Shown here piece by piece: positions 5,589 to 61,083 of a stretch of 64,000 nucleotides of DNA; position 1 is the stretch's first letter, and each line of letters opens with the position of its first letter. Under the pieces are notes generated by a model. The model was not told the origin of the DNA. It did no database searches and saw only the letters and a list, made by a program, of their open reading frames with translations. Source of the DNA: a virus (Duplodnaviria > Caudoviricetes); IMG/VR virus record IMGVR_UViG_3300005973_000002; one strand, written 5' to 3'. A program made the position numbers and the translations under genes.

Positions 5589-6326
5589 TTACTCTTTTTT
5601 GAGGTTGAAGTTGTAGACACAACAGTCAAGTCCAATGGCAACTTCGAGCACCAACAGATCTTTTTCTACAACTTTGTTTTTTGCCTGAAACTTTGCCCTG
5701 ATAGGAAAATCAGTTCGCAGAGAAATCGAACAGACCTCCATCCACTTGTCGCCATTATCAACCTCAACATCCATTGTTTTTTGGCTGTAAGATGGAAGAC
5801 GGTCAGAAACAACAATTCTAGTTGGCAAATGAACCATTTCTGCAATCATTTTTCGAACAGGTTCTAGCACTGCCGAATGATAGTCATTTAGTGTATCTGC
5901 TGTAAAAATGCACTGAAATTCCTGCTGATAAAACTCTTTCAGCCGCATGTTTTTGGTAACCTGGTCCTGTTCCCGTCGAAAACTTTTACCGGTCTGCCAA
6001 ACCACAAAAGGTGGGCGAGTTGGCTTTGAAAGTCCCCGGAGTAGATGGGCTGCGTATGCATACGAACCAGGCGTGGTTTCAGGTCGTAGAACGAGTCCAG
6101 GATTTTCCCCTTCTTGAAACCAAACATCCTCACGTGTATAGTTTGGGTTAATCAGAGTTTCAGGAGTAAGGATGGGAGTTTCAACCTGAAAAAAAGCCCA
6201 GGCCGGATTCATTTCGAGCAATGCCGTCTTTAGTTCAGCCAAAAAGTGTTGCTCAAACACTCTTCGTAGTCTGATTTCACGTTCAGACCAGAAAATAAGA
6301 CCGTTGCTGTTGTACAGGCTATCCAT
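5589..6326 (-). CDS. Stand-alone class II aaRS catalytic core, GlyRS(alpha2)-like, with no anticodon-binding domain
   Basis: Motif 1 region QVETPILTP, LRPETT, motif 2 GKSFRRE, RLKEFYQQEFQ, RLPSYS, WMEVCSISLRTDF. Motif 3 reads GLDC instead of GLDR. Only 245 aa. Confidence 0.8.
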   Translation of the reverse strand: MDSLYNSNGLIFWSEREIRLRRVFEQHFLAELKTALLEMNPAWAFFQVETPILTPETLINPNYTREDVWFQEGENPGLVLRPETTPGSYAYAAHLLRGLSKPTRPPFVVWQTGKSFRREQDQVTKNMRLKEFYQQEFQCIFTADTLNDYHSAVLEPVRKMIAEMVHLPTRIVVSDRLPSYSQKTMDVEVDNGDKWMEVCSISLRTDFPIRAKFQAKNKVVEKDLLVLEVAIGLDCCVYNFNLKKE

Positions 6327-6375: not shown

Positions 6376-6595
6376 TTAGAGGTTTCTTAAAGCTTCGGGC
6401 ACACACTGCATACCACGGGTGACCCATTGTTCGATTTCTGGACTTCCAAATTCAAAGCAGCCTTCCCAGCGGGTCTGAATCCAAGCTCTAAAAGAAGCAA
6501 TGCTTTCTTTAGCTGGGTCGCCTTTTCAGGTACCTTGCACACTCCGAACAGAACCCAAAACCAAACCATCGTCCGAACAATAGAAATTCGAACAT
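6376..6595 (-). CDS. Hypothetical 72-aa protein interrupted by a +1 homopolymer frameshift
   Basis: An SD (GAAGGA) precedes ATG 6595. Removing one base from the run at 6523-6526 gives a continuous ORF MFEFLLFGRW...YLKGDPAKES...EALRNL; the span is 220 nt = 3n+1. Confidence 0.5.
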
Positions 6596-6609
6596 TATTC
6601 CTTCTTCAC

Positions 6610-6637
6610 AAAAAAAGGACGCCGAAGCGTCCTTTTT
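6610..6637 (-). terminator. Rho-independent terminator after the RNA ligase
   Basis: GGACGC-TTCG-GCGTCC followed by a T-run on the minus strand, with an A/T run on both flanks. Confidence 0.9.
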
Positions 6638-7365
6638 CAGTTGTATTCTGTTCCGCCCTTACGGGTGAGGTAATCACCGCTAACAGACTTTAGCTGAACA
6701 CGGCCAATTTCTTCGCTCCAGCGTTCTACCGTAGGTCGAACAACAACACCCTCACGGATATGCATTTCCTTACCGGAAATAGTCTCGAAGCCGTCAGTGT
6801 ACTCGTACAAAACCTTCTTCGAGAAGGGCCCACGGTAAAGCACCGGAACACGCTGAAGACCAAGTCTCTTGCAAGCCGCATCAAGCTCAGAGTCGTTCAA
6901 ATAACTGCCAGACCCTGGACGTCCAACATAAATATCAAATACTCTAAAACCGATCTCGACGTCCTTGTCGGCAGAACTGCCATAAGAAAGGTCCTGAACA
7001 CCACGTCCAAAAATCTCTCCAAGAACGTAAACCGGCTGTGGATCGAAATCGTGTTTTAGCTGATGACCAAAAGCAAATGAAATACGGTTGTCCATGTTGT
7101 AGTGTCGAGCGACACGCACGTATAGATTCGTCTTGTTGGCTTCGGCATCATACTTCATCGCCAGTCCACGAGCCGAAAGACCCTTGGATGAGATAATGAG
7201 ACGGCCCTCCTCGGGATGGGCATCCCTCGGCGGCATAAGGCCAATCATACACCAGGTGTTATGAACAACAATGCCTTCAGCAATATAGTTGTTGTTGCCA
7301 CCATCAATCTCTAAATCATAGAGATCACTATCACTTTCAACATACTCAATCTTAACACAGCGCAT
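6637..7365 (-). CDS. RNA ligase C-terminal part preceded by a 36-aa C-intein
   Basis: MRCVKIEY...YDLEIDGGNNNYIAEGIVVHN, then T as extein +1 (intein part 7258-7365). Ligase motifs follow: VLGEIFG, FRVFDIY, REGVVVRP, QLKSVS. Confidence 0.88.
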   Translation of the reverse strand: MRCVKIEYVESDSDLYDLEIDGGNNNYIAEGIVVHNTWCMIGLMPPRDAHPEEGRLIISSKGLSARGLAMKYDAEANKTNLYVRVARHYNMDNRISFAFGHQLKHDFDPQPVYVLGEIFGRGVQDLSYGSSADKDVEIGFRVFDIYVGRPGSGSYLNDSELDAACKRLGLQRVPVLYRGPFSKKVLYEYTDGFETISGKEMHIREGVVVRPTVERWSEEIGRVQLKSVSGDYLTRKGGTEYN

Positions 7366-7651
7366 TTTTTACTCTTTCTATCGTTTTTTCTTTTTGATTG
7401 TTCCAATCACTTTCCCAAACAATTAGAACTTTGTACCCTCTTTTGAGCAAGGCGGCGGTGCGCCTTTTATCTCTTTTCCATTGTTGCCCAACAGTCCTGG
7501 AAATCCAAGAGCAATATTCGCTTGGGTCGTGAAATTTTGTTGGATTACAATGGAACATATCTCCATAGAATTCCAAGATAACTTTCTCACTTTTCAACAA
7601 GCCGTCTACGATAAACCCTGATATAATTTCTTCACGATTTGACGCCTGCAT
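7352..7651 (-). CDS. Vsr/DUF559-like (EDxHD-type) endonuclease ORF between the intein halves
   Basis: FIVDG...VILEFYGDMFH...RDKRRTAALLKRGYKVLIVWESDW. Confidence 0.8.
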   Translation of the reverse strand: MQASNREEIISGFIVDGLLKSEKVILEFYGDMFHCNPTKFHDPSEYCSWISRTVGQQWKRDKRRTAALLKRGYKVLIVWESDWNNQKEKTIERVKNALC

Positions 7652-7659
7652 GGGACTTG

Positions 7660-8454
7660 CTACATGATTGGACTTTCAATATCTTCATCAGGCAAAAGTT
7701 TGCCAGCTTCCACCCACATTTGTCGGTCACGTGAATAAACGGGGTGATCCTCGGTTAAGGTGAGAGTAGAACCGTTTTCTAAGGTAAGCTTTACCCATTT
7801 TTTATCTTCACTGTTTAGCCGACGCATGCGACCAGTAATAGGTCGCTCAATATATTCCTTGCTTTGTTCATTATAAGATAAAACCGACTGAATTGTTTTA
7901 TCAGCCACTACTTCTGCGATAGACCGCTCGCTTCCATCTACAAGTCGGACCATACTTGCTTCATGCAAGCATCCATGAAGTTTCTCAGTGAAAACAACCT
8001 CTTCACCTTCCTCAAGAATGTGAGGAAAACGCTTAAAATTTTCGATATCGTACTTCAAGGTACGGTCCTGACCAGCAGCGAACACCTCACCGGAAAGATG
8101 GGCCGGAATTGGAGGCTCCCACTTGGTAATTCCAAGAATATTAGCAACATCAGCACCCTCTTGCCACTCAGGACGTGCAGGATACACAAGTCCCTGTGAA
8201 AGGATGCCACGAAGACGAATGGCCTTTACACGATTCTTTGCCTTTCCGGCAAGCTTACCCTCAAGACCCATTTCACGGAGGAGAGCCTGAGGAACGACAG
8301 CCTGTTCTGGAATGTAGGCAACGAGATCACCGCTCTTAAACTGGTCCTTGCGGACAATTGCTTGGTAATCGCCCACCTGGGCGAGTTCTAAAGCATCAGC
8401 ATTGGGGTGTTCAAGAACAGTAATCCGTTCGACAGTTACAGAAAAAGTTGACAT
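7660..8454 (-). CDS. RNA ligase (DRB0094/Rnl5-like) N-terminal part fused to a 103-aa N-intein
   Basis: The N-terminal OB-like domain (HPNADALELAQVG, IRLRGILSQGL) and motif I TEKLHG are followed by intein blocks CLHEAS (C1 codon 7969-7971) and LTLTEDHPVY; it ends at TAG. Confidence 0.9.
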   Translation of the reverse strand: MSTFSVTVERITVLEHPNADALELAQVGDYQAIVRKDQFKSGDLVAYIPEQAVVPQALLREMGLEGKLAGKAKNRVKAIRLRGILSQGLVYPARPEWQEGADVANILGITKWEPPIPAHLSGEVFAAGQDRTLKYDIENFKRFPHILEEGEEVVFTEKLHGCLHEASMVRLVDGSERSIAEVVADKTIQSVLSYNEQSKEYIERPITGRMRRLNSEDKKWVKLTLENGSTLTLTEDHPVYSRDRQMWVEAGKLLPDEDIESPIM

Positions 8455-11400
8455 AAATTCCTCTAATGAGTTGGTTAAGAACCATTAATCACTAAGAAGT
8501 TATTGACTTAACTTTTCGATTACGAAAACGCCTAAAAATATGAACCCGATGTAACCCCCGACTGACAGAATTATCAGCGGGAACATCCGCAACACCAGGA
8601 GAAACAGAGCTATATAACATATAGCACATGCCACCAAGGATGTAAACACGAAAAGGGTACTTGGTGAATATTTCCTCACGTGTCCCGCCGGGACACATTT
8701 CTGCCCCTCATTTAATAACTAGTTTCTAAAAACTTTGCGTACAAAAAGTCTCTTTTGAATTTTCGGTCAAAAAATATTCATGCCAATAAGCTTCGCCATT
8801 TTCATTAACAAAAGGAGTTACATCAAGCAATTTACGACCAAGCGTGTCAACAAAATAAAGCTTCTCACCAAGCAGTATCAGCCATGGGTTGTGTAAATCA
8901 TAGTAATTTATTGCTCGAAAATCTTCACTAGAAGGCTTGAGGTTGATGACCATGAAAAGCGTGTTGGAAAGTACCTTTTTTCCAACTTCATCTCTGTTGC
9001 ACGCCACTGGATATACCGTAGCAGTATTGCAGAACCTGAACAATTTCCCAGGTTTCATGATTACCCCATCAAAACTTACAAAAGATCGTCGTCATCATCA
9101 TCTAATGACTCTTCCGATTCAACGTTGACAGTGAGCCCCATATCTTCCAAATCAGAAATGAGCTGCTCTAAGTTTTCTTCATACTCGCCATCATCCATTT
9201 CATCATAATTGATTTCAGTTTGAACCATAAGCGACACTAGCATCTTTTTCATGAGTTTCTCCAAAGTTAAACAAATCTAAGAAATTGGTTATCAAGACTT
9301 GATATTGTACATTTGTTCGTATTTTTGTTTTTGTTCTTTGGTCATATCCTGGTATCTACGAACTGTCTTACCCCTGATGAACTTTCCATGATTTTCATTC
9401 CATCGAATGGAAGGCTCGTCGAAGGACCCAACGTAATACAACTTCTCAGACTCATCAAACTTAAACATAGTCTGATCAGAATTAAAACGACCAAAAATTT
9501 TAACAATTTTTATTTTCTTGTTTCCTTTTTGATGCTTGGTCTTGAATTTGATGCCAGCTCGCTTGAGCATTTCAGTGAATTGTTTAAAATCAGTCATGCT
9601 TAAAAAACAAAGTTAAGTGCTATAAATTTGGCTTGATCACCGAACCAAATAACTGGATGTTTGCCGTCTTTGATTGGCCAAGGAGTATTGTTTAGGTGTG
9701 TTCTAATCAGATCAAGTTCGGAACCATTGGCAACAACCATAATCTGCTCTGCATTCAGAATAAATTGCCCAGGGCCCGGTTCTTCCTTTTGTTTTTCAGT
9801 CTTTTTTGATTTAAGGATGTCAGCTCTAAATGGATTTTCTTCTCCCGCTTCCCAGGAGAAGGTAACGGCCTGATTAATTTCGTCTGTGGACATCTTTCTA
9901 TGAAAGCGTTTAAGTCTAAGTGCCGAATTAGGCCAAATTTGAACGGTGATGGTCATTAGCCCTTACCTTTGTTAGATGGCGACAATGCCAACAAACGAAA
10001 TTTTCTCATGTCTTTTCTGATTTTTTTAATCAATTTTTGAGTTCTCTTAGAAGGAGACTTGGTAAGAAATCCTCTGCCCCGAAACTTATCATAGTCTGGC
10101 AATCTGGTAAACTGTGTTGCAGTAATGTCAACCACTTCACCAGTTTTACGATGTTTTAAAAGCCAATGTATATCACCCTCATGTCTAAGAGTTCCAGGCT
10201 TCCACTCTGAACTATTGTTACAAAGATGATAAAAAGCTTCAGAAGCAACATAGCAGTGACCTTTCAGTTGATTTGATTCGCCTCTGTATTTGGGCTTTCT
10301 CAAATCATCTGAAAGGTTCTTTTTAATAAGCCTGATTATTGTTTCGTTTTTCACTTCTTTTTTGGAAAGAATTTGCTAAGTCGTCGCATCGTGCTTGCAA
10401 GTTGGCGCATTCTTCGACGACTATCATCATACCATTCACGATCCAGTCGCTCACGTTGGCCCATCTGCTTTACAACCTCATTGAGGAAATCGATTGTGTT
10501 GTGTACGTCTGTAGAAATGTCAATCCACTCTTGAGTAAACTGAACCTCTTTAGCAGTTTTTCGTTCTTTACGTCTCCTTTTCTCTATATCTTTAACAGTG
10601 ACACCCAGCTCTTCGGCCAATTCTTTCTTGCACCTATTGGCCCGCCTTCGCTGAATTTTCAGCAAGTTTTTGCGGTACCATTCAAGACAAAGTTGAAATT
10701 CATTTATTTGTTCAATATTCTCAAAATTAGTATATATTTGCTCGACCCTCGGTATAGAACGGCCATAAACTTTGTTGAGAATGTCTTCAGGAATTTCAGG
10801 GGGAGAACGCAACTGACGAATTTTTCGATTTGCGGGAGTGTCTGCAAGGTCGTTGGTGATTTCCAAATCAGGAAAATCCTCTTTCATCACTGACAAAACA
10901 TGGCGCTTATTAAAACTCCAAAGATTCAACTTTTCGTCAAACCCCCATTTCTGGGAAAAAACCATCCATTCATCTGGCGGATCATCCACATGGCGAATTA
11001 ATCGCCACGGACGTTCTTTGAGCTTTTTTCCAAAGCCTTGCCTGTGAGTTTCAGTCGGATGAAGCTTTAAAACGAAATCACCAACCCGCCGTTCAATATG
11101 TTTTCGATCTGGCCAAGGCGACCAAGGAAGTTCACCAAATTCAGGTCTTGGATTGAGTCTGCAATCTAGGTCATCAAGATTATATGGAATGTGAAATGCA
11201 AAAGTTCTTCCCTCACGGAAGTGAGGCACTTCTACCAATTCTTCTTTGTAGTGTGACACATATCCCCCTAGAGGTTAGGGTTTATTGCTTAGGTTTCGGA
11301 CAAAGTATAGCATGAACCTGATCGCCTTCGAACCCATTGGGCAATTTATCAACATCGTTCTTATCTTCGAGATATATTTCCCAGCAAAATACACCATTTG

Positions 11401-13610
11401 ATGTTGTCCCGGAACCAACAGCCCATGCAGACTTTGCTCCGTTTTCTCTGCAATGTTCAAAAAGTCTCTGATGAGGTGCTTTTAGCATTTTCGGATTTAG
11501 TCTGCTCTTTTTCTTTAGCTTTTTCATACTTTAAAGCTCTCTCTGCCGCTCTTTTATGTTCAGAAATGGCATATGCCTCCTGACTAAGAACGGTGAACAC
11601 CAGGGGATATCCTGCCAATTTACCATTTGTCTCTTTCAAGACAACTTCTTTGAATTCACTATTTTCAAGGTAAATTCTCATACGCCTATTACGGCTACCA
11701 TCGCCTTCAATTGCAGCCCCCCAAGCATCATTACCAATTTTCTTATTGAGGGCGAAGAATGCCTTTTCCCAATCTTCTAAGTTTTCGAATTTGCGTCCAT
11801 CCATCAGCTGTCCATATTTTTTTCTTTTAAGCCAGCAAACACTGGATATCCGTCTACTTCCTTGGGAAGTGCTTCTACCAATTCACGGGAGTAGAGTTGC
11901 GCAGCAATCGCATATTTTCCGTTGGAAAGATTTATAGTGATATCAAAATCGGCTACTTTCTTCTTAAAGTGTGCCAAAAAAGCTTCTTCTAGTTTGCTCT
12001 TTGCCTCTTGTACGCCAACAATACTATTGTTCATAATCAGCTCAACTTGTCTGGGTCAAATGGCTCATACTCAATTTGAGCCCTTGCCACCTGGCATTTA
12101 CCTGCGCAATAATACTTTTTCCAAATATCTCCACTTTCTTCACCTTTACCGGACAAGGTAAAAAGAATCATTGGATACTTGGTTGAAAGTGCCCTCATAT
12201 CTTCATCGTGTCGATACCACTTTATGCTATCGCCGTAACCTTTCGCAACTTCCTTAATTATTTCCCACTTTTCATCCTTGGCAAGCTCCTCTTCAAAGAC
12301 CGATGAAAAACGATCCTCGTGAGCCAGAAAGCGGTATTCCAATTCGTAATTTGTATAATATCCCATTAATTCATATCTCCGTGGGCTGGGATTTCTCCAG
12401 TTGCCATTATATGTTCATAAATGGCGTTCTGTACGGCTTTTTGATAACGTTCAGTTATTTCTTTTTGGGCTGCTTCTTGTTTACGAGTTTCGGCCTCGAT
12501 GTTTGCCTTATACTCATCAAGAATTTTATTAAGTTTTTTTGTAAGGAATTTTGGCGAAGTATACACGCTAGTCAAATATCCCAAAATAAACGAGAAAAGT
12601 CCAACAACTACAGTTATTAGAATATAAATCATCAGTTGGCTTCCATGTGACCCTTTTCGATAAGTTGAAACCTTCTCATTTCTTCATGATGGCGATTGGA
12701 TTCTTTCATACAAGAATTCATTCCAAAAAACATCATTGAAACAAGTCCGATTAGAATTGTTCCTCTTGTCAGAGTTCCAATTATTTCTCCTGCGTCAATG
12801 TTCATTTTCCGACTCTTCCGTTTTATATTGTTTACTGCTCCAAACTGGTCTAAAACCTTCTTCCACAATCAAACACTCTGCCTTTAGCCATGCTTCCTCA
12901 AAGGAAAATCGGGTTCTCGAAAGAAAATCGTCAGTTCTTGATGAAGGCATGGGCTCATATTCAAACTGACCTTTTTTGTTCAGTACGTACATGTTATCCA
13001 TGACAATCACCCATTTATCCGGCCCACGCCATTCAATGCCAACTTGAGGCTGAATGCCCTTTTTAACCTGCTGTTCTCTTTCAGCAAGAACATTTGTTCT
13101 TGCGCATTCGAGCATCTTTTCTGACTGCGCTTTAGACATAAAATTCTCCTCGGTCATTGTTTCCACCGGTCGAAATAACCTCTAAACCACGCTTCTCACA
13201 ATAAGACTTTACTTGCGAGTCAAATTTCTTGGTAATCTTCATGACTCCATTTCGATCAATTCTTGAAGAAGCGTCAAAAACAAGTCGATCAGACCGAACG
13301 TCAATCGGTTCCATTTTTATCCCTCGCTTCAAAGTAAATGTCCATTAGGTACATCAGCTGTTCTCCATTGTCACCATCGCCACCTACCGCCCAACAAAAA
13401 TAGTCGTCATTGAAAATGAAATCTAAGGTGGCAATAGCTTCCATCAGAGCTATGGATTCTGGATGATGCTCTGCTCCAGTTTCCCAGCGTTTGTTAACAT
13501 CGGTTTCAATATTAACAAGGCTATATGGAACAGTTTCGGCAAGTTGCTTCTGCCAATATTCTTTTTTAAGAATATCTTCTGCTTTCATGACAAGTCTTCG
13601 TTGAGGTTAA

Positions 13611-13694
13611 TACCCAGGGTGGGACTCGAACCCACAAGGGCTTGCGCCCGGAAGATTTTGAATCTCCTACGTATGCCAATTCCGTCACCTGGGC
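13611..13694 (-). tRNA. tRNA-Leu(CAA)
   Basis: Acceptor GCCCAGG/CCTGGGT, loop TTCAAAA, long variable arm, T-loop GGTTCGAGTCC, A73; CCA not encoded. Confidence 0.93.
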
Positions 13695-15272
13695 ATGCTA
13701 CTTAGTTTTTTTTGTTGCCGAAGCCAGTACATCTTCGAAAATTTTCAGTAGAGTTTTTGAAGATAAACCTTCATCATTTTCCATATCATATGGTTCTTTT
13801 GAATCTGTTAAAGGAGACAACTTATCAGAAAGTTTTTTCTCGGCTGCTGCCCTTTCTTCAGCTCTGATTGCCATTTCACGGCAAGCTAATGCAAAAGCAT
13901 CTTCTATCTTGGTTTTGTCAAGAGACACGCCAGACAGAACAAAGCGTGTTGCCACATCCGGGTCCATTTTTTCCATGCATGCTTTGATAAAAGCAGCGTC
14001 AAGATCTTGAACATCATCTACAAACTTCATATTGATATGAATATACCCTCTCTTATATGTGTATTTATTACTCTGCCAAGATTTCGAACATATTCTCGAT
14101 CTCTTCTTTAATCTTGGCTTTTTGCTGAGACCTGATCATGTATCCCCATTTGCGCTGGGTGGTGCGCATAATATTGACCCATACAGCCTTTTCGTCAGTT
14201 AGGAGCTGCCCTCTAACGTAAACGTAACCATCATCCGCACGAAACTGTGCCGCTTCAACAAACATTACAGTCTTTTCCTTGTGAAGGAACTGATCTGACT
14301 GTGCAAAGGAATTACCCGCTCCAGCACCGCCCTGTAACATAAAGGCATTAAAATTATCTTCACCGCCAGTTTCTACGATATCCTCTTCAAGAGAGTAATA
14401 AAGATCCTGTTTCGTTTTTAGCAGGGTGCCCTTCTTGAAGGTCTTAATCTGCGGAATAATACGAAACATCTTTACTCGGGTTGGCTCGTACTCTTCTTCA
14501 TTCATATAGTACCCATCCTTACCTGTCGTTTTAGACTCCCGTTTATTCCTAGGAATGTCTATAACAATCAAGACTGAACACTTCTATACAGTGGTTTCGC
14601 TTTTATGCTCCTACAGCATAGCATAGCTTGGATTGGTTCTGAACCTGCTCAGGTTTCCTACCGACGTCCAGTAGTTCGAAGCCGTTTTGCCTCCTCAAGC
14701 ATTTCCTCCACAGTCCATCTTTTGGGCTTCGCAGGAGCCTCAGCCTTTTTATGTGTTACGTACGGCTTATTACTTGTAGCCATTTCTTCAAGCTTGCTTG
14801 CCATTTCACAACGATGGCACTGCTGCCCAAAGCCTTTGTGCCCACAAGAAAAACGTTTACGATTGCCACTTGCCATTTATTGTACCCCTACCTTATCTTA
14901 GAATATTAATCTAATTTTCTTTATCGAATTAAGCCCCTGAAATCATCTTTGCAAATGAAATAGCATAAATCCATCCTGTTTCGCTCGGTTCAAAACGAGC
15001 TACAGGCGAATTGCCAATCTTCAAAAAGTGAGGATCCAAACACTTAGACTTGACACCACGATCAAGAATTGATTTATCCTCGTACACAAGGATTTTGTTG
15101 CCACCATGATTGAAACAATCGGGATAGTTTGCTTCAACTACCGCAACCTTGCCAAAGTCAAGTCGTCTTTTTACTTTAAAACTGTATTTGTCAGGATACC
15201 CATCATTCACAGGTGTTCCACCCCAACTATAACTTGGTAAATCATCCGAAAACATTTTTTTGAATCCCACGA

Positions 15273-22873: not shown

Positions 22874-24460
22874 CTAACCTCGATATCGATTAATCAGGGA
22901 CTCCACCTCAGTCTGGAGTAAATCACTTCTTCGACCCGCAGAAAATGGCATTTCATCGAATTCACGGATTACACGAGCCTCACAGGTCATGAAATCATCA
23001 GTGAAGCCAGGGCCGAAAGGTTCATCAGAAGTGCCATCGTAATAGGTAACCAATGCATCATCACCAAGTTCGCCAGGTGCCGCAAGAGTGACCCCAGAGG
23101 TAAGGGCAATATCATCACGGAGAACCATGCATTCTGGGAGAGTCTGCTTACCAGGAGAATTGCTCAACTTGATAACTGGACGATCGTCGTTGCCGACAGC
23201 ACAGAGAGCAAATTTGGTGCTCATGTGGTCCCTGTTGATATTGTTACGAAGATGCCCGCCAATACTGAAAATACCACATCGCCATGGAACAAAACCGGCC
23301 GCAAGAGCTGCGTCGGTAATTTGAAGAACACTATCAAACGATTCACCGTTACCAACAATAAATCGAAGCGTGGTAGAAACATGACGTGTGACACCATCAG
23401 CACACAAGTGCTCAGCCATAAGCCCAGCCTGATGTGCCTTTTGTAGAGTACCAATCACCATATCTGTCGAATCGCCTGAATCAGGACGGGCAACAACGGT
23501 TCTTCCAGAGCCATCCGCCTGAGCCCTAAGGGCAAGGGGGATAAGGTGTTTCTCAAGCGCAGCCCAATAATCATAACAATCACCAACCATGCTGAGTAAT
23601 TCGTGATTGTCAGCAGTATCGTACATGTTCTCATAACAGTCGCCTTCGACTGCATAACCCTGCACGATGCGATGCGCAAGAGCTTTCACCGAAGAGCCAA
23701 AAGCAGCTGGTGCGCCATTTTTCCAGTTCTGGAAAGCAGCACGGAACGTGTCCGTACCAAACCAGACATAGTTGTGAACCCGACCCACCAATTCCGATTC
23801 CATTGGAGATGCTGCTGCCCTGTCGCCGAAATCATGAATCATGAGTCGGGCAAAAAACATGCACTCCTCGTCGCTAACCGAGTCAGGCTCAAATTTCCTG
23901 ATGAGATTGTAGGCATACTTCAAAAAGTGTCGAGCGGCGGTCAAACGCTCCGTGGCAGCCCAAACATGCAGCAGGGTGGACTCGAACCAAGGAACCAGCG
24001 GTCCAAACCCAGGCTCTGTAGCCTCCACCCTGAGGAATGGCTCGTGCGGATAAATTACAGAGCCTTCGGGCATTCCAACGACCTTGAGTGGAAGGTAGCC
24101 TCCGTATTCCTTGACGACTCGTCGCCACATTTCCTCAGGAAATTCGAAATCGTCAAAAGATCCGTCGTACTTTGCCTTTCGGCCCTTCAAAAATTCGATA
24201 GTCTCATCGATTTCGGAATTGGTGATCGGATCGTAAAAAAGCAAGTCGCAAAGCTGTTGCAAACCAGCAAAGACAATACGCTGGTCTTCAGGCGAATAAA
24301 ACGGCTCATGTGCATGAGGAAACTTCCTGAAAGTACCGTAATACTTGGAATTTTCCGTAGCCTCTTGGCTCTCGAAGGTAAATCCGTTAATGGTGTAAGC
24401 GTCACTCCAGAGCATTCTGGGTGTTCTATGATATCTTCTTGCGGGTAGTTTCTTTGCCAT
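22874..24460 (-). CDS. nadV: Nicotinamide phosphoribosyltransferase (NAMPT/NadV family)
   Basis: SDAYT, VFAGLQ, GYLPLKVVGMPEGS, FESTLL, HDFGDR, GTDT, DCYD, VARPDSGD, IGGHL, RDHMSTKFA, PGKQTL. Confidence 0.88.
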   Translation of the reverse strand: MAKKLPARRYHRTPRMLWSDAYTINGFTFESQEATENSKYYGTFRKFPHAHEPFYSPEDQRIVFAGLQQLCDLLFYDPITNSEIDETIEFLKGRKAKYDGSFDDFEFPEEMWRRVVKEYGGYLPLKVVGMPEGSVIYPHEPFLRVEATEPGFGPLVPWFESTLLHVWAATERLTAARHFLKYAYNLIRKFEPDSVSDEECMFFARLMIHDFGDRAAASPMESELVGRVHNYVWFGTDTFRAAFQNWKNGAPAAFGSSVKALAHRIVQGYAVEGDCYENMYDTADNHELLSMVGDCYDYWAALEKHLIPLALRAQADGSGRTVVARPDSGDSTDMVIGTLQKAHQAGLMAEHLCADGVTRHVSTTLRFIVGNGESFDSVLQITDAALAAGFVPWRCGIFSIGGHLRNNINRDHMSTKFALCAVGNDDRPVIKLSNSPGKQTLPECMVLRDDIALTSGVTLAAPGELGDDALVTYYDGTSDEPFGPGFTDDFMTCEARVIREFDEMPFSAGRRSDLLQTEVESLINRYRG

Positions 24461-34022: not shown

Positions 34023-35308
34023 ATTGCGCCACTTTGTCCAAAAAATGTCCAAGCTACATTTTCCCCGGAGAGTTTTGGTTCGCCTTCGTCGAAGGTATTT
34101 CTAATAGGCAACTCATGAACCTCTGCTACAACAGAGCAATGAATGGCTTGTGCATGATCAATAGCTACATCTAGACTATCACAAGGCCCTTGAAAATTTA
34201 AACCTTCGTAAGTATGCTCAAATACAAGGCAAAATAACATTATACCATCTTCAGATGGCAGAAATCTTCTTCTGTCATCCAGCATTCTCTGTCCTTAAAA
34301 AGGACCGTTGCTCCCAAATAATCATTTGGAAAATATATTTTTCCCCACTTGCCATACTTTTGGCCAACATACTTTGGAGAGTTGCAACTGTTTTTGATGG
34401 CCAAAACATACCATATCATTTTGAAAGATCAACAGGAATGCGAACCTTACGGAGATAGTCAGCAATTTGCTGAATGGCGTGTTCAACAACGCCTTCGGAC
34501 GGATTTGTGATCATATCCATCCTGAAGTGTTCTCCTGGGCCCTGAACACCCCAACTGCAAAGCATGAAAACATCATCGTCTTCCATAACGAATGAAATTC
34601 TACCGTGATTGGACTGCGGAAAATCAAATCCTTGATAGTAGACGATCATCTCTCCCTCGCCAATTTCAACATCACTATATTGCCTTGTTTCAGCAACACA
34701 TGAATATGTCCAAGAAAGACCTTGGCGGGCAAGATGTTTACATGCGATACCAATATATTCACATGTTTTATTATGATTCACGTTTTTCTCCAAACAACTG
34801 ATCATAATAAACAAACCCAATGAGTTCTTGTTTATCCTTTTCAAATTTGCCGCAATCCTGTTCCCATTTTTCCTTTAGCTCAATGTAATCTTCGTAAGCT
34901 TTATCTGATCGACCAGTAGGACCATAATGCAAATTTGGGACTTTTCCTTCATTATTATCTTTAAGTTTTTTATTTATAATACCTCTGCCGTTGAAGGGGA
35001 AATAATCTGTATGCAGCCCCATGTGCCCTTGCCATAAAGCATGTGTAGTAATTAAGCGAATTTTATCATCGTCTGTCAGTTTATAGACGTTGTATTTACG
35101 ATACCAGCCAAAATCATATTCTGTATCAATATCATCAGGGTCTTCGGCTACTGATACAAATTCTTCAAGCAAATCAAAATAGCATATTTCATTTTCATGT
35201 AACAAAACTCCACTAAGTGGTCCATCCCAATAATCCAAATGCCAGAGAATTTGCACGTTTTCAAGTTGTTTCATTTTTTTTGCTTTCCAATTTGTTTCAT
35301 CTTTTTAG

Positions 35309-35383
35309 CGAGACCTGTGGGATTTGAACCCACATCACTCCGGGTTAAAGCCGGCCGCATTACCAATTTTCTGCCAAGGTCCC
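35309..35383 (-). tRNA. tRNA with anticodon TTA (ochre-suppressor type; Gln/Glu-like loop)
   Basis: GGGACCT/AGGTCTC acceptor, G73, anticodon stem CCGG/CCGG, loop CT-TTA-AC (anticodon 35346-35348), T arm GTGGG-TTCAAAT-CCCAC. Confidence 0.85.
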
Positions 35384-40829: not shown

Positions 40830-41181
40830 TGGACCCGATCGGAATTGAACCGATGTCCTCAAGATCGCCTAAAAAAACTTCTACGTTACCTAGTTTGATT
40901 TTCAGATTACCGGTCCGAGGTATCAGACAACCAACCGGGTTCTTTCATTTGAAATCTTGATCAGACAGCCAATAGAAATCTAACTCTAGTCTAATCCAGT
41001 CCTAATAACGACGCCTTATAGAATGCAAGGACACTCAAGCTATAAGACGGCTCTCATCAAGCAGCGAGAGCAAGAGGTGCATTGTCTGCATTTATAATCG
41101 TTTATTGGATTTAAGTGGTTCTAAACACCCACCGTAACGCCATTTTTTCTTCTTACCCCAAGTCGAAACCAGTACGGGCCC
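40830..41181 (-). ncRNA. ssrA: tmRNA (352 nt), tag peptide ADNAPLALAA
   Basis: 5' GGGCCCGTACTGGTTTCGAC; acceptor with G3.U70; ATAAAT then GCA GAC AAT GCA CCT CTT GCT CTC GCT GCT TGA (41057-41089); 3' GGAC-ATCGG-TTCAATT-CCGAT-CGGGTCC-A. Confidence 0.95.
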
Positions 41182-52147: not shown

Positions 52148-52152
52148 TTTAG

Positions 52153-52224
52153 TCGGAGTGGAGGGATTCGAACCCCCGACCGCCGGTTCCCAAAACCGGA
52201 GCGCTACCACTGCGCTACACTCCG
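52153..52224 (-). tRNA. tRNA-Pro(TGG)
   Basis: CGGAGTG/CACTCCG, GCGC D-stem, CCGGT-TTTGGGA-ACCGG, T-loop TTCGAAT, A73. Confidence 0.95.
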
Positions 52225-52288: not shown

Positions 52289-54196
52289 CTACACCGGATA
52301 CTCTCGTATTTGAATAGATTTTGGCCACTCGACAGGATCATCACCTTTTTTACTGTTCAACTTCGACATGGTCAAGCCTGTCAATATCGGCTTAGAACCG
52401 AGCTGTTTTACAAATACTTTAGTTGATGTACCATTGACGCATTTCACCACGTTGTCTGCCCAAATCCAATCAAAAGCTCGGGCTCCTGAACCGCTTTCCC
52501 CGCCCACAACAATCCAATCAAGGTCATTGACCCAAGGAGAAAAGTCAACGGGTGCTAAGGCTGGTTCGTAACTTGCCCAGCGTACTTTTGAAGTAGTTCT
52601 CAACAGAATTGGGATTCTTTTATCTGCTGTTGACTGGTCTTCACAAGACACTCCGAGCCAAACATTGTTCAGCGGCCACGTTTTGTCAACTTTATCAGTT
52701 TCTTTTCGACCGGTAAGCTTTCTAGCCTCATTGGCACAATATTCAGCTGGTGATGGGACTTGCAAGGCAACCCAATCAAACCAATCCTTTGCTCTTTCTG
52801 GTCTTTTTGTTAATACCTGAAAGGTATGCTTTTGTGCAGCTGCCATTACGCCAAAGACAGCAGCAATGTATTCATTAGCGACGCCATGATGAAAGAGATC
52901 ACTCATTGAATTAACGAACACCATTCTTGGCTTAGTCCAACGAATGGGGTCTGCAAGCTTGTCTGGTACAAGCATAATATTGCCATTCCACCTTGGACCC
53001 TTTTTGCCGACGGCAATTAACCCATGGTAAGGCTCTCCAGGCCCAGAAAACCTATGTGCGACCGTTTCCGCATAGCAATTATGCACAGCCATTCCTAATG
53101 CTATGAATGTACCAGAGGTGGTTTGTATATCTACCAAATTGCGTTTACCAATTCGTCTAATCCCATCAAATTTTATTGATTGTTTTGATGGAAATCTTCG
53201 TCCATGAAAGTCAACCGTCTTTCTTTGTAATGCAGGTTGAATTGTAGATAAAAATTGAATTTTATCAGAAATGGTTCCCAGGAGTATTTCACTTTTGTTT
53301 ACTTGCGTAGAATATTGTTCATATTTGGATTTAAATCCCAAATCAGCAATTGCACGATGAGCAATGTTCAATAAATTGTTTTCTTTGGTCTGATTAAATC
53401 TTAGATTTTTGCCACTATAACATCCATCCATATCCAAAAAACCAGCAAGAAACCCAGCTTTCCAATTAAAGTCACTTTCTTCCCGTATTATAATATTCCT
53501 AATTTTTAGGAGATTGTCCATAATCCGAGTTTCAATTTTCAACATGGGAAGGTTGGCTTCCCTGTAAAGAAATGCATCACCTCCATTAAAGGAGCGAATA
53601 TTAATATTTTTACAGCCAAATTCGATCAATGCTTTTTTTAAGCGTTCAAGAATTGGTTTATCTGTTGCCAAAACTGCCACACGACAATAAGATTGAAGAG
53701 TGCCATTTTTCCCAGAACCTTCAATTCTAATTGTGTCGTCGCCACCAACAACTCCAGCAATATATCCTGCCAAATAGGGTTTAGAATTTATATCTGGCAA
53801 CCACTTTGGAAACCCAATACTAGATATTTTTGTGTTTAAATTAATCTTTTCAGCTTTTCTCCAATATGGTCTATGTGGAGATAAAAACAAATGGTCAACA
53901 CTTGATACTATCGTATTAGAACCAAAATATAATTCTACCGCTTCTTTCCTGGTTTTCCAAGTTTTAACAACCGTAGCCTCTTCAAAAACTCTATTTTGTC
54001 CAACTTTAGGATTGTCAGTAAAAGCAATAACTTTATCACCCTCTTTAATCTCGCCAATAGGCACCCAACTCATATCGGACATTAAAACAGGCGTATCTGG
54101 GCCCAGGCAATTTTCGCAACCCTTGGAAACTCTAGAACAGCCTCTCAAAGGATTCCATGTGGCATCAGTCCACTGTATTCCGGTCTTGTTTCCCAT
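52289..54196 (-). CDS. Gp37/Gp68 (DUF5131, radical-SAM-like) protein containing an intein
   Basis: Exteins IQWTDATWNPLRGCSRVSKGCEN and CYAE..., FVNSMSDLFH, HTFQVLTKRPER, NVWLGVS, SYEPAL, WIVVGGESG, FVKQLG; the mature protein is 291 aa. Confidence 0.92.
   Translation of the reverse strand: MGNKTGIQWTDATWNPLRGCSRVSKGCENCLGPDTPVLMSDMSWVPIGEIKEGDKVIAFTDNPKVGQNRVFEEATVVKTWKTRKEAVELYFGSNTIVSSVDHLFLSPHRPYWRKAEKINLNTKISSIGFPKWLPDINSKPYLAGYIAGVVGGDDTIRIEGSGKNGTLQSYCRVAVLATDKPILERLKKALIEFGCKNINIRSFNGGDAFLYREANLPMLKIETRIMDNLLKIRNIIIREESDFNWKAGFLAGFLDMDGCYSGKNLRFNQTKENNLLNIAHRAIADLGFKSKYEQYSTQVNKSEILLGTISDKIQFLSTIQPALQRKTVDFHGRRFPSKQSIKFDGIRRIGKRNLVDIQTTSGTFIALGMAVHNCYAETVAHRFSGPGEPYHGLIAVGKKGPRWNGNIMLVPDKLADPIRWTKPRMVFVNSMSDLFHHGVANEYIAAVFGVMAAAQKHTFQVLTKRPERAKDWFDWVALQVPSPAEYCANEARKLTGRKETDKVDKTWPLNNVWLGVSCEDQSTADKRIPILLRTTSKVRWASYEPALAPVDFSPWVNDLDWIVVGGESGSGARAFDWIWADNVVKCVNGTSTKVFVKQLGSKPILTGLTMSKLNSKKGDDPVEWPKSIQIREYPV
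53078..54109 (-). mobile_element. Intein (344 aa) with a LAGLIDADG homing endonuclease domain
   Basis: Starts CLGPDTPVLM, has VSSVDHLFL and ends LVDIQTTSGTFIALGMAVHN, with Cys at +1. Endonuclease motifs are YIAGVVGGDD and FLAGFLDMDG. Confidence 0.92.
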
Positions 54197-59471: not shown

Positions 59472-59552
59472 ACAAAGAACTCGGATTCGAACCGAGAATA
59501 CCTTTACAGGCGGCGCAAGTTGCGAAGTGTATACCATTTCCACCATTCTTTG
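59472..59552 (-). tRNA. Type II tRNA-like RNA with a collapsed anticodon arm
   Basis: Perfect CAAAGAA/TTCTTTG acceptor, GGTGGAAATGGTATACAC D region, GCCT-GTAA-AGGT variable arm, CTCGG-TTCGAAT-CCGAG. The anticodon arm is only CGCA-ACT-TGCG. Confidence 0.7.
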
Positions 59553-61008: not shown

Positions 61009-61083
61009 TGGAGCGGGTAGGGGGAATCGAACCCCTCGTCATCTGGTTGGAAGCCAGAAGCTCTACCATTGAGCTATACCCGC
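61009..61083 (-). tRNA. tRNA-Gly(TCC) with encoded CCA
   Basis: GCGGGTA/TACCCGC, U73, TCTGG-CTTCCAA-CCAGA. Confidence 0.95.

Follow-up and report, generated by a model that had tools for sequence, protein, structure and literature searches.

The stretch of DNA analysed here, referred to as the window, comprises 64,000 nucleotides (nt) of one strand of the virus record IMGVR_UViG_3300005973_000002 (Caudoviricetes). On its minus strand, the coding sequence of an RNA ligase is divided between two open reading frames (ORFs). The first ORF ends with the N-terminal part of an intein (IntN), the second starts with the C-terminal part (IntC), and an ORF for a nuclease related to the E. coli endonuclease Vsr lies between the two. 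The ligase segments outside the intein are called N-extein and C-extein, and each extein together with its intein part is called N-half or C-half. In all likelihood, this is a fractured RNA ligase gene whose two products would be joined by protein trans-splicing, and the inserted sequence is a homing-derived cassette with a truncated nuclease. The features are listed below in the 5' to 3' order of the minus strand, with lengths in codons, nt or amino acids (aa).

7972-8454, minus strand: N-extein, RNA ligase residues 1-161, with an OB-fold (PF21189, 5.7e-13) and ligase motif I (TEKLHG, from the lysine K158 to G161)
7663-7971, minus strand: IntN, 103 codons, with Cys1 and block A (CLHEASMV), block B (LTEDH) and the end ...DEDIESPIM
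7652-7662, minus strand: TAG stop codon of the N-half (7660-7662) and 8-nt spacer ahead of the nuclease ATG, a remnant of the 5' leader of the nuclease
7352-7651, minus strand: Vsr-like endonuclease ORF, 99 aa, with DUF559 and Vsr matches; a deletion derivative comprising the catalytic core only
7352-7365, minus strand: out-of-frame overlap of 14 nt between the nuclease 3' end and the IntC start codon, located within AAAAAATGCGCTGTGTTAA
7258-7365, minus strand: IntC, 36 codons, MRCVKIEYVESDSDLYDLEIDGGNNNYIAEGIVVHN, with blocks F and G and the terminal His-Asn; TIGR01443 match
6637-7257, minus strand: C-extein, 206 codons from Thr+1 (TWCMIG), and TGA stop codon; PF09414 match (1.7e-18), the remaining nucleotidyltransferase domain
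6612-6637, no strand assigned and listed on the plus strand: palindromic GC-rich hairpin with A and T runs on its flanks, directly 3' of the C-half stop codon

The N-half ORF (7660-8454, minus strand, 264 aa) runs from ...VVFTEKLHG directly into CLHEASMV...DEDIESPIM and ends with TAG. It matches the Hint profile with 31.6 bits (cut-off 29.7) and the intein_Nterm profile TIGR01445 with 30.1 bits (cut-off 24.5). At the first junction, the TAG is followed by 8 nt and then by the nuclease ATG in a different frame. At the second junction, the nuclease stop codon overlaps the IntC start by 14 nt, so that the ATG of the C-half lies inside the last 14 nt of the nuclease gene, and a Shine-Dalgarno-like AAAGAG is located 6 nt upstream of this start. 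The C-half ORF (6637-7365, minus strand, 242 aa) reads MRCVKIEY...GIVVHN followed by TWCMIG and matches the intein_Cterm profile TIGR01443 with 24.9 bits (cut-off 15.6) as well as the RNA_ligase profile PF09414. The hairpin behind the C-half is probably the terminator of the three-gene unit. In the authors' own reading of the sequence, it would act in both directions, since the stem is a palindrome with a T run behind it on the minus strand as well.

A preliminary description of the locus, made from the sequence alone, had already proposed most of these parts, and the present coordinates and profile matches agree with it. This applies to the three ORFs in different frames on the minus strand, to the N-extein running to TEKLHG with a 103-aa IntN and TAG, to the 99-aa nuclease of the Vsr/DUF559 type (DUF559 and E. 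coli Vsr, 1vsr, are both matched), and to the Met-started 36-aa IntC (...VVHN) with a C-extein starting with Thr, for which the intein_Cterm match lies above its cut-off.

The host enzyme was identified by joining residues 1-161 of the N-half to residues 37-242 of the C-half. The exteins sum to 161 + 206 = 367 aa, the length that had been proposed for the joined ligase, and this product aligns without a gap across KLHG/TWCMIG to uninterrupted ligases of 367-368 aa with 80-88 % identity. Among these, P0007 is 88 % identical overall, and P0009 (86 % identical) scores 263.5 bits against the cut-off of 151.15 of TIGR02306, the NCBIfam equivalog for RNA ligase (ATP), DRB0094 family (Rnl5-like). The two halves of the window score 148.7 bits (profile positions 3-170, N-extein) and 96.9 bits (positions 179-341, C-extein), each singly under the cut-off, and jointly they span the whole profile. 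The motif I lysine K158 is present in TEKLHG, and the downstream regions are conserved with the intact homologs. The sequence comparison therefore supports a DRB0094/Rnl5-type ATP-dependent RNA ligase as host, with its activity being predicted.

The insertion is precise to the codon. The contig L015 is a syntenic empty site that carries P0009, with flanks about 80 % identical to the window. Window positions 8737-7973 and 7258-6610 meet at L015 958/959, and therefore the inserted cassette corresponds to window 7258-7971, i.e. 714 nt. The insertion point lies exactly between Gly161 and Thr162 of motif I (EK158LHG/T). Uninterrupted alleles, for which the preliminary description had recommended a search, thus exist and include a syntenic one, and the contiguous cis-intein alleles it had also suggested looking for were found at the same site in other intein lineages. 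Another uninterrupted ligase, P0010, was rejected as an empty site, as its locus (L013/L014) lacks synteny with the window. Apparent intein-like extensions found by tblastn in Brevundimonas, Microbacterium and Arthrobacter phages were really uninterrupted ligases of 322-397 aa. As a separate observation, the 516-aa protein P0146 from a JGI metagenome is a DRB0094-type RNA ligase in which an HNH domain (residues 101-136) is fused, or has been mis-called, N-terminally before the OB-fold.

The three-ORF split is genuine and not an artefact of assembly. Four independent short-read assemblies (ENA, JGI) agree with the region 6500-8600 at 100 % identity, three of them over the entire 2,100 nt compared. 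The stretch was found in five runs from hypersaline lakes, and the contigs of the two that were compared show no differences and no indels, one of them at a depth of 58.8. The fractured gene belongs to a giant phage of hypersaline lakes, with contigs bearing it of up to 461 kb, and a megablast search of the region against 50,697 phage records gave no match. The layout and the break points are also kept in loci that are merely 50-70 % identical to the window, with the following lengths of the three products.

L005 and L011: N-half 262-263 aa, nuclease 269-270 aa, C-half 238 aa
L006: N-half 285 aa, nuclease 268 aa, C-half 234 aa
L009 and L010: N-half 293 aa, nuclease 259 aa, C-half 244 aa
L018-L020: N-half 264 aa, nuclease 263 aa, C-half 242 aa

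In these relatives, IntN ends with ...EDI(E/K)SP and zero to three further residues before a TAA, TGA or TAG stop codon, and IntC starts with M(K/R)C, overlapping the nuclease 3' end out of frame. This overlap measures 14-32 nt in L005, L006, L009 and L018. The L009 junction (...ANALRSC, stop, and MRCVAVE) is homologous to that of the window despite its differing sequence. The preliminary description had cautioned that the loss of a single A in the A6 run near 7355 would merge nuclease and IntC into one reading frame. This concern was dropped because relatives with quite different sequence at this position, such as L009, have the same out-of-frame overlap. Among the proteins retrieved, at least 31 distinct N-halves (clusters at 90 % identity) contain K(L/I)HG followed directly by the intein Cys. 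The break is reached by 28 of the 31, with an IntN of 100-104 aa in all but one, whose 120-aa IntN contains an insert. The distinct C-halves number at least 15.

The intein carries the residues required of class 1, namely Cys1 (C162), the block B motif T-E-D-H, the terminal ...VVHN and Thr+1. An alignment of 21 homologs, 44-79 % identical, shows no variation at Cys1 and the T..DH block, and among solved structures the NrdJ-1 split intein (8ubs, E = 7e-4) is the closest by sequence. The N-extein and IntN give, in comparison with L018, a ratio of nonsynonymous to synonymous substitution rates (dN/dS) of about 0.06, and the nuclease core one of about 0.10, values to be read as upper-bound style estimates with dS saturated against all relatives. 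Together, these features suggest that both halves would be trans-spliced into the 367-aa ligase.

Evidence for mobility of the cassette comes from contigs of a marine-sediment run (X6), which are about 98-99 % identical to the window over IntN, the nuclease core and IntC. On one side, the identity ends at most 10 nt from the N-extein/IntN junction, with one listed difference in 170 nt of IntN and no fewer than 11 in the adjoining 64 nt of extein. At the opposite end, the identity stops 17 nt beyond the IntC/C-extein junction, and the extein then continues with GLVPERMQHPE, as in P0010 and unlike the window. Such boundaries would be expected from a recent copying of the whole cassette into a diverged ligase allele. 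Independently of X6, relatedness to the window differs between intein and extein: for P0038, P0051 and P0100, IntN is 62-65 % identical to the window versus 47-50 % for the extein, while P0012 and P0013 show the reverse pattern with the extein closer than the intein. On a tree of the N-exteins, the split state requires at least eight changes compared with a mean of 28.9 after shuffling, and only two of them are forced by well-supported branches. The sample of this tree is biased because its rows were chosen by similarity to the query.

The nuclease matches DUF559 with 29.4 bits (cut-off 20.6) and E. coli Vsr (1vsr) with E = 2e-3. Its residues 5-99 align to the C-terminal 95 or so residues of the 259-270-aa nucleases of the relatives, and all 34 of the 34 invariant columns are kept. 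D16, E27, H34 and D61 correspond to D51, the Phe62 position, H69 and D97 of Vsr, based on a mapping made partly by eye from the alignment. The relatives carry about 165 further N-terminal residues with a CxxC...CxxC pattern and a helical region, and this zinc ribbon together with the helical region is likely the DNA-recognition part. Apart from L018 2716-3228 (about 513 nt), in place of which the window has 9 nt between its positions 7647 and 7637, the two sequences are collinear, and the spacer and leader region of the window is homologous to TAGCACGTTCCGTGCAAACG in L018. The Vsr-like identity proposed in the preliminary description holds. Overlooked there were the origin of the ORF by truncation of a nuclease of about 263 aa and the existence of a populated family with this arrangement.

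The deletion also affected the sequence in front of the nuclease. In L009, L006 and L018, a hairpin with an ATAAATA element covers the ribosome-binding site (RBS) and start codon of the nuclease (z = -4.35, -3.99 and -2.30). RNA folding of the window stretch gave no significant hairpin before the nuclease start (z = +0.44), as this element was lost with the nuclease deletion. The imperfect repeat that had been pointed out at the first break is thus no structural element but a leftover of the nuclease 5' region. The X6 contigs match both sides of window position 7640 and hold other sequence at this point, beginning with ATGAGTAAAACAACT (minus strand, encoding MSKTT), which resembles the MSKST start of the L018 nuclease. 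Since the X6 cassette, about 98-99 % identical, has the full-length 5' end, the deletion is recent. None of the six differences listed for X6 in IntC and the nuclease changes an amino acid, although the nuclease gene of X6 is the full-length one.

In view of these losses, the 99-aa remnant has most likely ceased to be effective in homing. The 3' end of the nuclease gene may persist since it carries the RBS and start codon of the IntC half. Alternatively, the 99-aa protein could have kept homing endonuclease activity in a minimal form, with the cassette of this phage still being mobile. The ORF is intact with D16, H34, D61 and the family-invariant E27 kept, and Met-initiated core-only Vsr-like ORFs of 97-105 aa exist elsewhere, e.g. 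P0216 on a 229-kb contig. However, about 168 codons with conservation across six relatives are missing from the ORF, the gene has neither the regulatory hairpin nor a Shine-Dalgarno sequence, and with such a recent deletion an intact ORF is weak evidence of function. This alternative is therefore considered unlikely. P0216 was rejected as support for working core-only nucleases, as it is not part of a fractured gene and says little on the function of the core. In its own right, it is a free-standing, Met-initiated Vsr-like core ORF of 97 aa (L037:2501-2794) among small genes of unknown function.

Returning to the fractured gene with a homing-derived cassette, the following mechanism is proposed. 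The N-half (161-aa extein and 103-aa IntN) and the C-half (36-aa IntC and 206-aa extein) would be translated separately, and the intein halves would associate, with the acidic IntC strand lying against the basic GRMRRLNSEDKKWVK patch of IntN. Class 1 trans-splicing, using Cys1, the block B Thr and His, the terminal His-Asn and Thr+1, would then join the exteins to the 367-aa ligase with an intact motif I. In its full form of about 260 aa, comprising zinc ribbon, helical region and Vsr core, the nuclease would drive the copying of the cassette into intein-free alleles of co-infecting phages. A recent deletion took about 168 nuclease codons and the RBS-sequestering hairpin from the copy in the window.

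Several points weigh against this reading or parts of it. A model of the complex between residues 150-264 of the N-half and residues 1-48 of the C-half scored 0.87, compared with 0.02 for the best of three controls, and thus predicts binding of the halves, yet this score may reflect resemblance to solved split-intein complexes. In the calibration, 51 of 78 solved complexes attained such a score, as did 2 of 108 mismatched pairs. As the preliminary description had noted, both intein halves are net acidic (IntN -5, IntC -6), in contrast to the DnaE split inteins with their overall charge complementarity. Locally, IntN has the basic patch GRMRRLNSEDKKWVK, which is conserved in the relatives and faces the acidic IntC, and the two presumably pack together. 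The saturated dS against L018 limits what the dN/dS values say on selection on the truncated nuclease copy itself, and no recognizable Shine-Dalgarno sequence lies upstream of the 99-aa ORF. The evidence from X6 consists of four short contigs at 3-4x depth, the comparison of the lake runs was made with assembled contigs, and a search across runs found no RNA sequencing run containing the stretch.

The last point would also fit a dead gene, i.e. a ligase that was inactivated by the insertion, with unspliced halves and a locus decaying together with the nuclease. The decay of the nuclease has clearly begun, and phage RNA ligases are accessory genes that can be lost. Nevertheless, the exteins contain no stop codon or frameshift and have remained 80-88 % identical to intact alleles, and the low dN/dS of about 0.06 for the N-extein and IntN is at odds with decay. 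The splicing residues are all intact and invariant across the 21 diverged homologs. The split layout furthermore persists in at least 31 lineages, including L008 and L036, which lost the nuclease yet kept both halves with a Shine-Dalgarno sequence of their own. Thus, a dead gene is quite improbable.

An error of assembly or sequencing, with a contiguous intein and nested endonuclease as the true gene and the TAG and frame changes as mistakes, has next to no probability: although removing one A from the A6 run would join the nuclease to IntC, and contiguous inteins do occupy the motif I site in other phages, joining all three ORFs needs two separate changes (stop codon and frame change, then a second frame change), the four assemblies and the contigs of two of the five lake runs agree, the IntN stop position and the out-of-frame overlap recur in 50-70 % identical relatives with other sequences and stop codons, the contiguous inteins at the site belong to other lineages (22-30 % identical), and a 607-aa read-through query of the three pieces, with X at both breaks, yielded no contiguous allele of the window intein lineage among its best 120 hits, all of which were uninterrupted ligases.

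Beyond the window and its relatives, the motif I site is found in several other states. Contiguous mini-inteins occupy it in the IMG/VR contigs L026 (519 aa) and L029 (501 aa), and contiguous LAGLIDADG inteins in L027 (689 aa) and L032 (764 aa). An Rnl2-like ligase (RNA_ligase and T4_Rnl2_C; L028:451-2457) likewise has a contiguous LAGLIDADG intein at TEKIHG/C. Further fractured versions carry other nucleases (L023, L024, L025, L035), and in L008 and L036 a short spacer with a Shine-Dalgarno sequence separates the split intein parts in place of a nuclease. L036:37-1354 encodes a small RNA ligase without OB-fold, with an N-extein of 31 aa, the junctions MEKIDG/C...HN/TS, an IntN ending with CEEIESPMI and a spacer of 16 nt containing GAGAGGA. 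Its IntC is 81 % identical to that of the window, and therefore the window intein lineage would have crossed between ligase families; L036 looks like a case of extein switching. The protein P0036 (261 aa) is a split N-half with the site K-I-H-G/C and an unrelated IntN (24 % identity, starting with CADKDTEI), and therefore a second split-intein lineage uses the same insertion point.

The X6 boundaries within 10-17 nt of both junctions and the 81 % identical IntC of L036 lead to a more general, speculative idea. Motif I of phage RNA ligases could be an intein landing site across families, with the split intein and nuclease homing as a unit that can switch families. If true, the ligase activity of the phages would require protein splicing, a step that could be conditional.

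With the window, an ATP-dependent RNA ligase would be added to the few enzymes known to be produced naturally by protein trans-splicing. The motif I site shows nearly every stage of gene breaking: empty, with a mini-intein, with a LAGLIDADG intein, fractured with a full nuclease, fractured with a truncated one, and without nuclease. Due to this coverage, real sequences are available for testing the gene-breaking model and the homing cycle. NrdJ-1 and other inteins of fractured genes are among the fastest split inteins in protein engineering. For this field, the family offers a resource of no fewer than 31 natural split inteins of the Cys1/Thr+1 type with an IntC of 36 aa, which by sequence are distant relatives of NrdJ-1.

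Further observations concern the surroundings of the locus. Just downstream of the ligase, a 245-aa gene (5589-6326, minus strand) with a class II aminoacyl-tRNA-synthetase core (PF00587, precomputed annotation) is present. This tRNA-synt_2b-like gene is syntenic in L015 and has no PHROG match. A suppressor-type tRNA with the anticodon UUA, which reads UAA, was predicted by ARAGORN at 35308-35383 (minus strand) and prompted a check for stop-codon recoding. Recoding was rejected, as a crude ORF count gave no clear signal, the stop codons at the locus are TAG, TAA and TGA, and all three are used as IntN stops in the relatives. ARAGORN also predicted a transfer-messenger RNA with the tag ADNAPLALAA (40830-41181, minus strand) and tRNAs for Leu, Pro, Ser(act) and Gly at 13610-13695, 52152-52224, 59472-59552 and 61009-61083, respectively. 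A 635-aa ORF (52289-54196, minus strand) matches phrog_2045 in two separated stretches, and a 528-aa ORF (22874-24460, minus strand) matches the phage nicotinamide phosphoribosyltransferase family (phrog_448, 1.8e-42).

The locus can be compared with three groups of known systems. The catalytic core of the nuclease matches E. coli Vsr (1vsr, 1cw0) with the equivalents of D51, H69 and D97 present. It differs from Vsr in that it is no repair enzyme but sits in a mobile cassette, has Glu at the Phe62 position as in the homing family, and lacks most zinc ligands and the N-terminal DNA-intercalating helix. The contiguous RNA ligase inteins (L026, L029, L027, L032, L028) share the insertion directly after the K-x-H-G of motif I in proteins with OB-fold and RNA_ligase domains. 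In contrast to the window, they are single-chain, contain either no endonuclease or an in-frame LAGLIDADG one, and are 22-30 % identical to the window IntN. The InterPro entry IPR021122 is presumably a domain of the PF09414 type. A 2025 preprint (bioRxiv 10.1101/2025.01.02.630785) gives 'RtcB-like RNA ligase, IPR021122' as the host of a contiguous intein in actinobacteriophages. Since contiguous inteins occur in phage RNA ligases, these enzymes are not unprecedented as intein hosts. A full-text search for naturally split inteins together with RNA ligases found, within the library covered, no paper combining both.

The closest counterparts are the fractured genes described by Dassa, London, Stoddard, Schueler-Furman and Pietrokovski in 2009 (PMC2677866), e.g. 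gp41-1, NrdJ-1, IMPDH-1 and the Lake Gatun DNA-ligase locus. The hosts in that study fall into eight types (gp41 helicase, IMPDH, DnaE, NrdA, NrdJ, DNA ligase, terminase and one unknown protein), the endonuclease and IntC overlap by 6-69 bp in 15 loci, and a hairpin upstream of the endonuclease start sequesters the RBS in 15 of 16 loci. As in these genes, two adjacent ORFs on the same strand of the window jointly cover the whole enzyme, the upstream one ending with IntN and a stop codon and the downstream one starting with Met and IntC. A free-standing Vsr-like gene lies between the intein parts with its 3' end overlapping the IntC start, the hairpin with ATAAATA is present in the relatives of the window, the context is phage and metagenomic, and the closest solved intein by sequence is NrdJ-1. 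The differences are that the host of the window is a DRB0094-type RNA ligase outside the eight types, that the +1 residue is Thr, and that the nuclease has been cut to its catalytic core with the hairpin gone. The fractured gene with a split intein and a Vsr-like nuclease at motif I of an RNA ligase, as first put forward in the preliminary description, is thus supported by the profile matches, the relatives and the empty site. While the layout has been known since 2009, no report of an RNA ligase as the host enzyme was found, and this host appears to be new. Also new are the deletion derivative of the nuclease, the nearly identical cassette within a diverged allele of the ligase, the other inteins at the same site, and the occurrence of the intein lineage in another ligase family.

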